Virus record (IMG/VR): IMGVR_UViG_3300002498_000005
Coordinates: 1-64,000 of that record
Source of the DNA: a virus
Reading direction: 5' to 3' (one strand)
DNA: 64,000 bases
This document shows, one piece after another, positions 60,288-61,796 of this stretch. The notes below the pieces were generated by a model, which was given only the letters and a program-made list of their open reading frames with translations, made no database searches and was not told where the DNA came from. Every line of letters starts with the position of its first letter. Within the stretch, counting starts at the first letter, position 1. A program made the translations under genes and the position numbers.

Positions 60288-60303
60288 TAAAATACATATT
60301 TTA
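60288..60303. repeat. TAAAA-N6-TTTTA site left of the tail-region recombinase unit
   Basis: TAAAA-TACATA-TTTTA. Confidence 0.65.
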
Positions 60304-60393
60304 TCACACAAAAGACACTACATATTGTGGTTGAACAATGGTCTTACCACCATATATAGTATGCTTAAAACCAAAGTAAAGGAAAATTGAAAA

Positions 60394-60675
60394 ATGAATA
60401 ACGATTACATCTGGACAACTACGGACATTAATCATGTGGCTTATTTGATTTCCGTCGGTGGATTTAAAATCCAAGACTTTCATAAAGAAAATAAAAACGG
60501 CAAAGAAGTCGTAAGTTTTGTATTTTATGAATCCGAGACCACAATTAACAATGAACTAAGAAACTATATTAATAGTGAAATCGCTAAATTTAATCAATCA
60601 AAAAATGAACTCCTTTCTCTTATCAGGCAAAATAAATTAACTAAAGAAGAAATGCTAGGTAAAGTCAATGGGTAG
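60394..60675 (+). CDS. Small hypothetical protein coupled to the recombinase
   Basis: TTDINHVAYL..GF..VSFVF; overlaps recombinase start. Confidence 0.6.
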   Translation: MNNDYIWTTTDINHVAYLISVGGFKIQDFHKENKNGKEVVSFVFYESETTINNELRNYINSEIAKFNQSKNELLSLIRQNKLTKEEMLGKVNG

Positions 60676-61696
60676 ATCGTCAGTTTATAATAGCATAACC
60701 TCCGATGAAACATGGGAAGCGGTTAATAAAAAAAATAAGAGTTTATTGAATGAATTTATTGATTATTTGCGGTCTACTGATAAATCTGCATTAACTATTG
60801 TTAATTATGAAAGCGATTTAAAGATTATATTTACGTGGTGTGCGCTTGAAAATGATAACAAATTTTTCGTTGAATTTACAAAAAGGGATATAATTAAATG
60901 TCAAAATTATTTACTCAATGAGATGAAACTTGGGTCTAGCCGTATCAGACGTATGAAAAGTAGTATGTCTAGTTTATCGGGTTATATTGAAAATATTTTG
61001 GACGAAGATTTTCCAGAATTTAGAAATATTATAAATAAAATACCTCACCCCGCTCCTAATGAAGTACGTGAAAAAACTATAATGTCAGAAAAAGATGTGG
61101 ATAAATTACTGAATTACTTAGTTGAACATAAAGAGTATCAGAAAGCGTGTGCGGTTGCATTGGCTGTTTGTAGTGGAGCAAGAAAAGCTGAGTTGCTTCG
61201 ATTTAAAGCATCTTATTTTATTGATGAAAATATTATATACGGTTCACTTTATAAAACTCCAGAAAAGATAAAAACGAAAGGGCACGGAGTCGCAGGTAAA
61301 AAAATCTTCAAGTACGTTCTTATGAACAGGTTTCAATTATATTTTGATTTATGGGTGAAAGAAAGAGAAGAGCTTGGCGTTAATATCGATGACTTGTTTA
61401 TCAATAATGAAGACGATCAATATGTATGTGCGAGTATATCTATGTTAAATAGTTGGGCTAATTCATTTTCGAAAATAATTGAATTAGATTTTTATTGGCA
61501 TTCATGCCGACATTTTTTTACAACATATCTTTCAAAGGCTAATGTTCCCGCCGAGATTATAAAGGAAATATCTGGGTGGTCGTCCATAGATATGGTATCA
61601 AGATACGACGATACTGAAGTAGACGAATCTTTAGGCAAGTATTTTAATGCTAATGGCATTAAAAATACAGAATCTAAATCATTAAGTGATTTATAA
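60668..61696 (+). CDS. Tyrosine recombinase in the tail module
   Basis: SGARKAEL, KTKG, HSCRH, GWSS.DMVSRY. Confidence 0.9.
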   Translation: MGRSSVYNSITSDETWEAVNKKNKSLLNEFIDYLRSTDKSALTIVNYESDLKIIFTWCALENDNKFFVEFTKRDIIKCQNYLLNEMKLGSSRIRRMKSSMSSLSGYIENILDEDFPEFRNIINKIPHPAPNEVREKTIMSEKDVDKLLNYLVEHKEYQKACAVALAVCSGARKAELLRFKASYFIDENIIYGSLYKTPEKIKTKGHGVAGKKIFKYVLMNRFQLYFDLWVKEREELGVNIDDLFINNEDDQYVCASISMLNSWANSFSKIIELDFYWHSCRHFFTTYLSKANVPAEIIKEISGWSSIDMVSRYDDTEVDESLGKYFNANGIKNTESKSLSDL

Positions 61697-61724
61697 ATAT
61701 TGCGAGGTGCAAACCTCGTTGATA

Positions 61725-61740
61725 TAAAAGTGCCATTTTA
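61725..61740. repeat. TAAAA-N6-TTTTA site right of the tail-region recombinase unit
   Basis: TAAAA-GTGCCA-TTTTA. Confidence 0.65.
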
Positions 61741-61796
61741 TTCATTCGCTGAGTAGGGTGGCACTTTACTTTAATTAAAAATTGAGGAGAATAAGA

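Follow-up and report, generated by a model that had tools for sequence, protein, structure and literature searches.

What does a tyrosine recombinase do among the tail genes of a phage, where it is enclosed, together with one small gene, by two copies of a short palindrome? The locus lies near the right end of the first 64,000 nucleotides (the window) of IMG/VR record IMGVR_UViG_3300002498_000005, a single 100,348-bp phage contig that CheckV rates as linear and 67% complete. Between the palindromes are an open reading frame (ORF) of 93 amino acids (ORF93; 60394-60675) and the 342-residue recombinase gene (60668-61696), both on the + strand. A preliminary description of the window had proposed this enzyme as the best candidate for a cassette integrase working at the palindromes. 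We arrive at a different account, which we hold to be somewhat better than evenly probable: a vertically inherited two-gene unit with its own NrdR-gated promoter and a terminator-like hairpin end, whose enzyme acts on replicating phage DNA.

An intact Xer-like recombinase of the YomM/gp50 group

Judged by its sequence, the tail-module recombinase is a catalytically intact, Xer-like enzyme. It matches PF00589 (E = 2.7e-10; 40.7 bits against a cut-off of 27.1), the SAM-like core-binding family PF13495 over residues 26-103 (1.9e-7; 31.8 bits against 27) and phrog_1 (1.6e-30), and in alignments the complete catalytic set is kept (R172, E175, K204, H278, R281, W304 and Y313), which bears out the identity first assigned to it. 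There are only two domains, one core-binding and one catalytic, and no arm-binding domain. Against solved structures, a profile of the protein recovers XerA (5hxy; 4e-16), XerH (1e-14), XerD (4e-11) and Cre (2.5e-6), with the alignments to XerA, XerH and XerD starting at residue 22; a profile was needed, as a phmmer search of the PDB sequences with the recombinase sequence gave no match. With the XerC/XerD-dif, XerH-difH, XerA and Cre-loxP systems the enzyme shares its catalytic set and its expected job, the resolution or circularization of replicated DNA. It differs from them in scoring far below the XerC/XerD equivalog cut-offs (35.1 bits versus 335 for TIGR02224 and 29.5 versus 330 for TIGR02225), in that no site with arms of 11-13 bp was identified for it and in lying within a virion operon. 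The integron-integrase model TIGR02249 gave no match to it at E <= 0.01.

The gene is a member of a known, unexplained group, that of SPbeta YomM and Tyrovirus gp50. In the SPbeta-like phage Goe12, the homolog xerC_2 occupies the yomM position, upstream of yomK-yomJ-yomI, and is 27.7% identical over 92% of the protein, whereas gp70 of the Tsamsa-like phage Skywalker, just before the tape measure gene, is 31% identical; a reverse tblastn search supports the homology (9e-25). Homologs occupy the corresponding stretch of the tail module on many IMG/VR contigs. The placement of gp50 between neck and tape measure genes has been called 'especially curious', and the same placement is described for Perkons and the 949 family (PMC9703825). 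YomM/gp50-type Xer-like recombinases are carried by large Firmicute siphoviruses (SPbeta-like, Tyrovirus, 949-like, Perkons and E3) in the interval from the major tail gene to the tape measure gene, at a position that varies slightly from phage to phage. Here, the recombinase is placed between a virion protein gene (58490-59521) and the tape measure gene, which begins at 62803.

The likeness to YomM and gp50 (28-31% identity) extends from the two-domain architecture and the location to an inverted repeat with a 6-bp center right after the stop codon. There are also differences. The repeat after gp50 has 11-bp arms, whereas the one here has 6-bp arms and belongs to a family of 46 copies. In Goe12 YomM a Lys replaces the second catalytic Arg, which is kept here. 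The new points are two: a predicted NrdR operator in front of the gene, and a probable, translationally coupled 93-residue partner that is confined to the nearest relatives.

This partner, ORF93, is slightly acidic (isoelectric point (pI) 6.1), and its stop overlaps the start of the recombinase gene, the two reading frames sharing 8 nt, ATGGGTAG. Because of this overlap, and because the two genes are also adjacent in the relatives L007 and L112, ORF93 is probably a partner of the recombinase. The preliminary description had suggested an accessory or directionality factor; the partnership is supported, whereas a role in directionality is not, as nothing marks ORF93 as an excisionase. Besides the pI, no Xis family in Pfam, PHROG or NCBIfam matches it, and a fold search against the PDB returned nothing informative (best Z 5.8, within noise). 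The predicted model is confident (predicted local distance difference test (pLDDT) score 90.6) and weakly resembles DUF5659 phage proteins, to which the sequence itself matches below the cut-off (8.9e-5). The family is rare, with 11 relatives among 1.84 billion representatives.

The base composition of the two-gene unit is the same as that of its flanks, and the order of genes around it is retained in L112 (IMGVR_UViG_3300037067_014320), whose recombinase and ORF93 are 65% and 50% identical to those described here. The L112 order is g59663, g59948, ORF93, recombinase (Int), g62267 and tape measure (TMP).

A palindrome and two NrdR boxes form the left edge

Approximately 75 nt of the 107-nt gap before ORF93 are shared with the opposite strand at genome 96.6 kb. 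The gap holds a composite regulatory module, whose first element is the left palindrome, TAAAA-TACATA-TTTTA (TAAAATACATATTTTA; 60288-60303). It is followed by two NrdR boxes, ACACTACATATTGTGG at 60315-60330 and CCACCATATATAGTAT at 60347-60362, which are separated by a 16-bp linker. Each box has six out of six conserved positions, given as C4, A6, A8, T9, T11 and G13 in PMC13584703, where a linker of 15-16 bp is described as the rule. The boxes start 32 bp apart, an arrangement that none of 50 shuffles reproduced.

Two further pairs, at genome 96616/96648 and 81227/81259 (the latter identified by eye), have the same 32-bp distance and all six conserved positions. They belong to modules that combine a palindrome with tandem boxes beyond the window, at genome 96595-96690 (L005 12595-12690) and 81200-81274 (L004 17200-17274), respectively. 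In all three modules the palindrome (60288, genome 81200 and genome 96675) lies 11 nt from the nearer box, and the 96.6-kb module has a second palindrome 5 nt from its other box. Both of these modules stand at the head of leftward operons, which encode a single-stranded-DNA-binding (SSB)-like protein, an ATPase, a helicase, a DNA polymerase and an NrdD-like reductase at 96.6 kb, and dUTPase and ThyX at 81.2 kb. The first gene after the 81.2-kb module is an ORF for a 37-residue hydrophobic peptide (genome 81072-81185, - strand; L004 17072-17185), which sits exactly between the palindromes at 81200 and 81059.

Together, the modules suggest that the phage has an NrdR regulon of three operons. An NrdR gene was sought in the 100 kb of this 67%-complete record and none was found, so host NrdR would act as the repressor. 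The modules resemble the known NrdR regulon (PMC12051234 and PMC13584703) in having two partly palindromic 16-bp boxes, a 16-bp linker and the six conserved positions, and one of the three heads an NrdD operon, as for ribonucleotide reductase operons. They differ in that the regulon is that of a phage, in that the gene after one pair codes for a recombinase instead of a nucleotide-metabolism enzyme, and in the fixed 11-nt distance of each pair from a junction palindrome.

Overlapping the linker and box 2 is a candidate sigma-A-like promoter on the + strand, TTGAAC-18-TATAGT (60331-60360), proposed from a consensus match only (nine of 12 positions). The left edge can be described as a portable module, made up of a palindrome, 11 nt and two NrdR boxes with a 16-bp linker laid over a sigma-A-like promoter, that would make the unit a separate transcription unit inside the late tail operon. 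Since the same kind of module also heads the replication, DNA polymerase and NrdD operon and the dUTPase and ThyX operon, the enzyme is probably made during phage DNA synthesis, upon release of the host NrdR repressor. Autoregulation by the recombinase had been raised in the preliminary description; the regulatory elements found here are NrdR boxes, with no evidence for autoregulation.

Two RNA hairpins form the right edge

After the recombinase stop come two hairpins on the + strand. The first, CGAGGT-GCAA-ACCTCG (61703-61718), has 6-7 pairs and a predicted energy of -10.8 kcal/mol (z -3.7), whereas the second (61727-61767) has 18 pairs and reaches -22.9 kcal/mol (z -6.9); taken together, they give z = -6.5. 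Four of the 18 pairs are G-U, because of which the fold is stronger on the + strand than on the - strand (only -13 kcal/mol). Such a strand-specific fold has therefore presumably been selected in the sense transcript. The right palindrome, (A)TAAAA-GTGCCA-TTTTA(T) (TAAAAGTGCCATTTTA; 61725-61740), begins 29 nt after the recombinase stop and forms part of the 5' arm of the second hairpin, in agreement with the G-U-rich structure noticed earlier. The hairpin pair is probably a terminator-like 3' end of the ORF93-recombinase transcript, at which host RNA polymerase would be halted.

The palindromes belong to a gene-junction family

The two palindromes do enclose ORF93 and the recombinase, at the coordinates first reported. 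Contrary to the earlier statement, the structural arm holds further perfect copies: two more occur in the window at 44474 and 57377, both within ORFs, and another three past it, at genome 71271, 72703 and 76802. The window contains 33 TAAAA-N6-TTTTA copies compared with 1.9 expected, a number reached by none of the shuffles, and the whole genome contains 46. The 6-bp spacer is specific, since every other spacing from 2 to 11 bp yields only 1-7 copies. The two bracketing palindromes are ordinary members of this 46-copy gene-junction family.

Most copies (39 of 46) lie in the leftward arm, where the coding-strand consensus is (T)(A/G)AA-TAAAA-N6-TTTTA, the two A's before the palindrome being present in 35 and 33 of the 39. 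In 22 of these 39 copies the upstream gene ends on the palindrome's own TAA, and the next start codon mostly follows 13-19 nt past the palindrome. In six other motif-rich phages, a stop codon lies inside 24-43% of copies, compared with 3-7% for any TAAAA pentamer. Only 5-7 bp of each arm are conserved and the spacer is unconserved, with no identical pair among the 46. Such a position would suit a site for a DNA-binding protein that acts as a dimer, or else a promoter-like element belonging to the early gene class.

The motif is widespread among related phages. With the count of the reversed pattern as control, there are 36 copies versus 1 in Goe12 (MT601273.1), 30 versus 7 in E3 (KP144388.1), 17 versus 2 in Perkons (MT325768.1), 18 versus 3 in Skywalker and 19-45 versus 0-6 in several IMG/VR proviruses (G016-G038). 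Enrichment is thus 5- to 40-fold over control in SPbeta-like and other large Firmicute phages, with placement at gene junctions and often with a stop codon supplied. A stable RNA hairpin can be ruled out, as the palindrome and its flanks do not fold (-0.1 kcal/mol, z -0.2). It is likewise no general host feature, given counts of 86 versus 66 and 46 versus 56 for motif and control in two Paenibacillus genomes, the excess being clustered on one contig.

Neither is it the operator of the SPbeta regulator MrpR, SPBRE. In Goe12, where we read it from the aimR promoter and seven further sites, this element is approximately ACAAAAAATATGTATA, a different sequence, and no true copy of it was found in the present genome. 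According to PMC10516654, SPBRE is a 15-bp element with roughly 10 copies at promoters (aimR, yopV and others) in SPbeta-like phages. The two are alike as repeated intergenic elements in the same phage group, SPBRE being bound by a protein of the tyrosine-recombinase fold. They coexist in Goe12, with its 36 TAAAA-N6-TTTTA copies. TAAAA-N6-TTTTA is a lineage-wide element distinct from the SPBRE operator. A literature search for the motif string produced no phage description of it and one unrelated archaeal match. Phylogenetic profiling of 153 ORFs against six motif-rich and five motif-poor genomes found no protein present in all of the rich and none of the poor, so no candidate motif-binding factor emerged.

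What does the recombinase act on?

In the account we prefer, replicating phage DNA is the most likely substrate, on which the enzyme might, for instance, resolve multimers or circularize the genome in the manner of Cre or Xer. Several observations weigh against this account. The use of the promoter, the operator and the terminator is predicted from sequence alone. The 96.6-kb copy of the module does not keep the -35 hexamer, and the 81.2-kb module has its genes on the palindrome side of the boxes; as that module faces its genes from the other side, the direction in which the 60.3-kb copy would fire is uncertain. The 18-pair hairpin is listed as terminator-like by a terminator scan, though the U-rich tail that follows, ACUUUAAUU, is weak. 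In L112, only ~25 nt precede ORF93, with no palindrome or NrdR box there, and a palindrome with two NrdR boxes instead follows the recombinase (4312-4380), in front of a gene for a small membrane protein. Control of the enzyme by NrdR is therefore not a conserved trait; likewise, the bracket is not conserved, and it is the regulatory module that moves. A search of the genome for a dif- or lox-like site with long arms found none. Lastly, seven of 13 relatives have a palindrome close to the recombinase gene (at most 250 nt upstream or 200 nt downstream), compared with ~2.5 expected by a rough, junction-aware hand estimate (Poisson p about 0.013, uncorrected for shared ancestry), an adjacency that hints at a direct link which our account leaves unused.

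That link would be explained if the palindromes were minimal Xer-type core sites, bound by the recombinase alone, with ORF93 or with a second Xer-like enzyme. The recombinase would then repress or punctuate its own unit, exchange small gene modules as proposed for the Acinetobacter pdif modules, or both. We consider this possible, though well short of evenly likely. The geometry, a 6-bp spacer between palindromic inner arms, matches that of dif-type sites (PMC6449649). A palindrome comes right after the recombinase stop not only here but also in L007 (+4), L112 (+10) and Goe12 (+18), and just upstream of the gene in L014, L018 and BE02, and an 11-6-11 inverted repeat just after the gp50 stop of Tyrovirus has been published as a putative site (PMC9703825). 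Furthermore, few proteins in the proteome-wide profile track motif richness as well as the recombinase (five of six rich and two of five poor genomes), and homology breakpoints at gene junctions, compared among SPbeta-like genomes, show an approximately twofold excess at motif junctions (18 versus 9.1 expected).

Other evidence speaks against core sites. Classical tyrosine recombination needs matching spacers, whereas all 46 spacers differ, and the conserved arms of 5-7 bp are short compared with the 11-13 bp of known core sites. The left site belongs to an NrdR module with further copies at a distance from any recombinase gene, and the breakpoint excess is small and was counted on reciprocal pairs. 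Enzyme and motif are separable in both directions. We gathered IMG/VR terminase relatives with an alignment-based scan, a single-protein query having found none, and took 31 terminase-related contigs of at least 60 kb. Among the 15 that are motif-rich, 11 have the recombinase and four do not, including the complete G018, G028 and G033; among the 16 that are motif-poor, seven have it, including the complete G011, G012 and G015 (Fisher p = 0.15). Homologs without enrichment are found in G015 (48% identical, with 7 sites versus 7 control), G007 (127 kb; 39%, 2 versus 1) and G004 (57%, 1 versus 4), as well as in G011 and G012, whereas Sundance has neither motif nor recombinase. Homologs in phages lacking the motif are what the preliminary description had itself named as evidence against a cassette integrase.

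A second, more canonical Xer-like recombinase is encoded inside the motif-rich early arm (299 residues; 20776-21675, - strand; PF00589 5.1e-31). It is closer to XerA (5e-45) and XerD (3e-37) but again below all equivalog cut-offs, and scores 71.9 bits against a cut-off of 265 with TIGR02249. The gene ends on the TAA of the palindrome at 20763 and has RNA ligase and polynucleotide kinase genes as neighbors. These last two genes, the kinase being polynucleotide kinase/phosphatase-like, adjoin each other directly downstream (18700-20527, - strand) and look like a tRNA-repair pair. With a second Xer-like gene in the motif-rich arm, unlike spacers, an L112 locus devoid of the left site and an enzyme separable from the motif, the cassette-integrase idea is weakened.

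More doubtful still is actual crossing-over, in which the tail-module recombinase would bind and recombine the palindromes, perhaps with the second enzyme and ORF93, with the copy that follows its own gene as the ancestral cognate site. If true, the early arm with its 40-odd stop-codon copies would be the phage counterpart of pdif-module and integron arrays, and the YomM/gp50 family would gain its long-missing function. The resemblance to the Acinetobacter plasmid pdif modules (PMC6449649) and to integron cassettes lies in the many short sites at module borders, often with stop codons inside. The pdif sites are 28 bp long (11-6-11) and are used by host XerC/D, whereas the arms here are 5-7 bp; integron integrases have an extra domain and act on folded single strands, whereas here TIGR02249 is not matched and the palindrome is unfolded (-0.1 kcal/mol).

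A role as lysogeny integrase, with the inverted repeat just after the stop codon serving as attP, is improbable. This role was suggested for Tyrovirus gp50, where the 11-6-11 repeat was proposed as attP (PMC9703825), and would agree with the homologs found in nine proviruses (G006, G016, G020, G026, G027, G029, G030, G037 and G038) and with a 40%-identical gene on two Paenibacillus genome contigs. The enzyme, however, has no arm-binding domain, its candidate site has 6-bp arms and 45 look-alikes in the genome, and no repressor or attachment junction lies nearby. The gene is also present in Staphylococcus Sextaecvirus, where it follows the endolysin gene, and these phages are lytic. In addition, SPbeta integrates via the serine recombinase SprA according to PMC10516654, yet SPbeta-like phages retain the YomM-type gene.

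Very improbable, too, is a DNA-binding regulator in the mold of SPbeta MrpR (YopR), with a recombinase fold and a repressor function. MrpR itself provides the precedent, from the same phage group, but it is without the catalytic Arg and His (PMC10516654, Table 3), whereas the present protein keeps R-E-K-H-R-W-Y, and the MrpR site is the different sequence that is absent from this genome.

Least credible is a mobile cassette inserted between two palindromes, a notion encouraged by the bracketing copies and by the slightly different positions of the recombinase among phages but contradicted by L112, which has the same neighbors on both sides and no left palindrome, by contigs of the hydrocarbon and freshwater runs covering 57000-64000, none of which joins across the unit or shows any difference, by unlike spacers (TACATA versus GTGCCA) with no target duplication, and by a composition that matches the flanks. 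The unit is syntenic, and the mobility considered for it in the preliminary description finds no support. An invertible tail-fiber segment (shufflon) was also rejected, as no inverted repeat longer than 19 nt exists anywhere in the genome.

Genomic context

The genome has a G+C content of ~30% and two oppositely oriented arms. Leftward genes, at roughly 78-100 kb and 1-38.7 kb, make up the early, replication and small-gene arm, whereas rightward genes at 39-77 kb make up the virion arm. The terminase is YonF-type and 39-41% identical to its counterparts in SPbeta-like phages and in Psychrobacillus phage Perkons; the closest terminase relative, G008, is not collinear in the tail region. To the left of the unit, the virion protein gene is followed by two small tail-region genes, one of which (112 residues; 59948-60286, + strand) has a TAA stop ending 1 nt before the left palindrome. 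To the right, two further genes separate the recombinase from the tape measure gene. A search for near-identical DNA in the phage collection found none; small contigs identical to the phage over window positions 57000-64000 are present in a 2015 freshwater metagenome and in a 2013 hydrocarbon metagenome, the latter being the probable source of the record.

The first large gene of the rightward arm (40583-41716, + strand) matches a phage sigma factor family (phrog_5767, 8e-25) and, toward its C terminus, zinc fingers of the HNH/endonuclease VII kind; we saw no RNA polymerase of the YonO type. Beyond the window, a 58-bp exact direct repeat (genome 73198-73255 and 74525-74582) has its two copies in adjacent large tail genes (72824-74131 and 74166-75695), which probably encode paralogous fiber or receptor-binding domains.

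Implications

Few genes are as well conserved as those for YomM/gp50 recombinases across a very large group of Firmicute phages, to which SPbeta and phages of B. anthracis belong. With a predicted NrdR-type operator common to the recombinase and to the replication and nucleotide-metabolism operons, expression of the enzyme may coincide with DNA synthesis and not with tail assembly. The phage apparently borrows the deoxyribonucleoside triphosphate (dNTP) sensor of its host for more than reductase genes.

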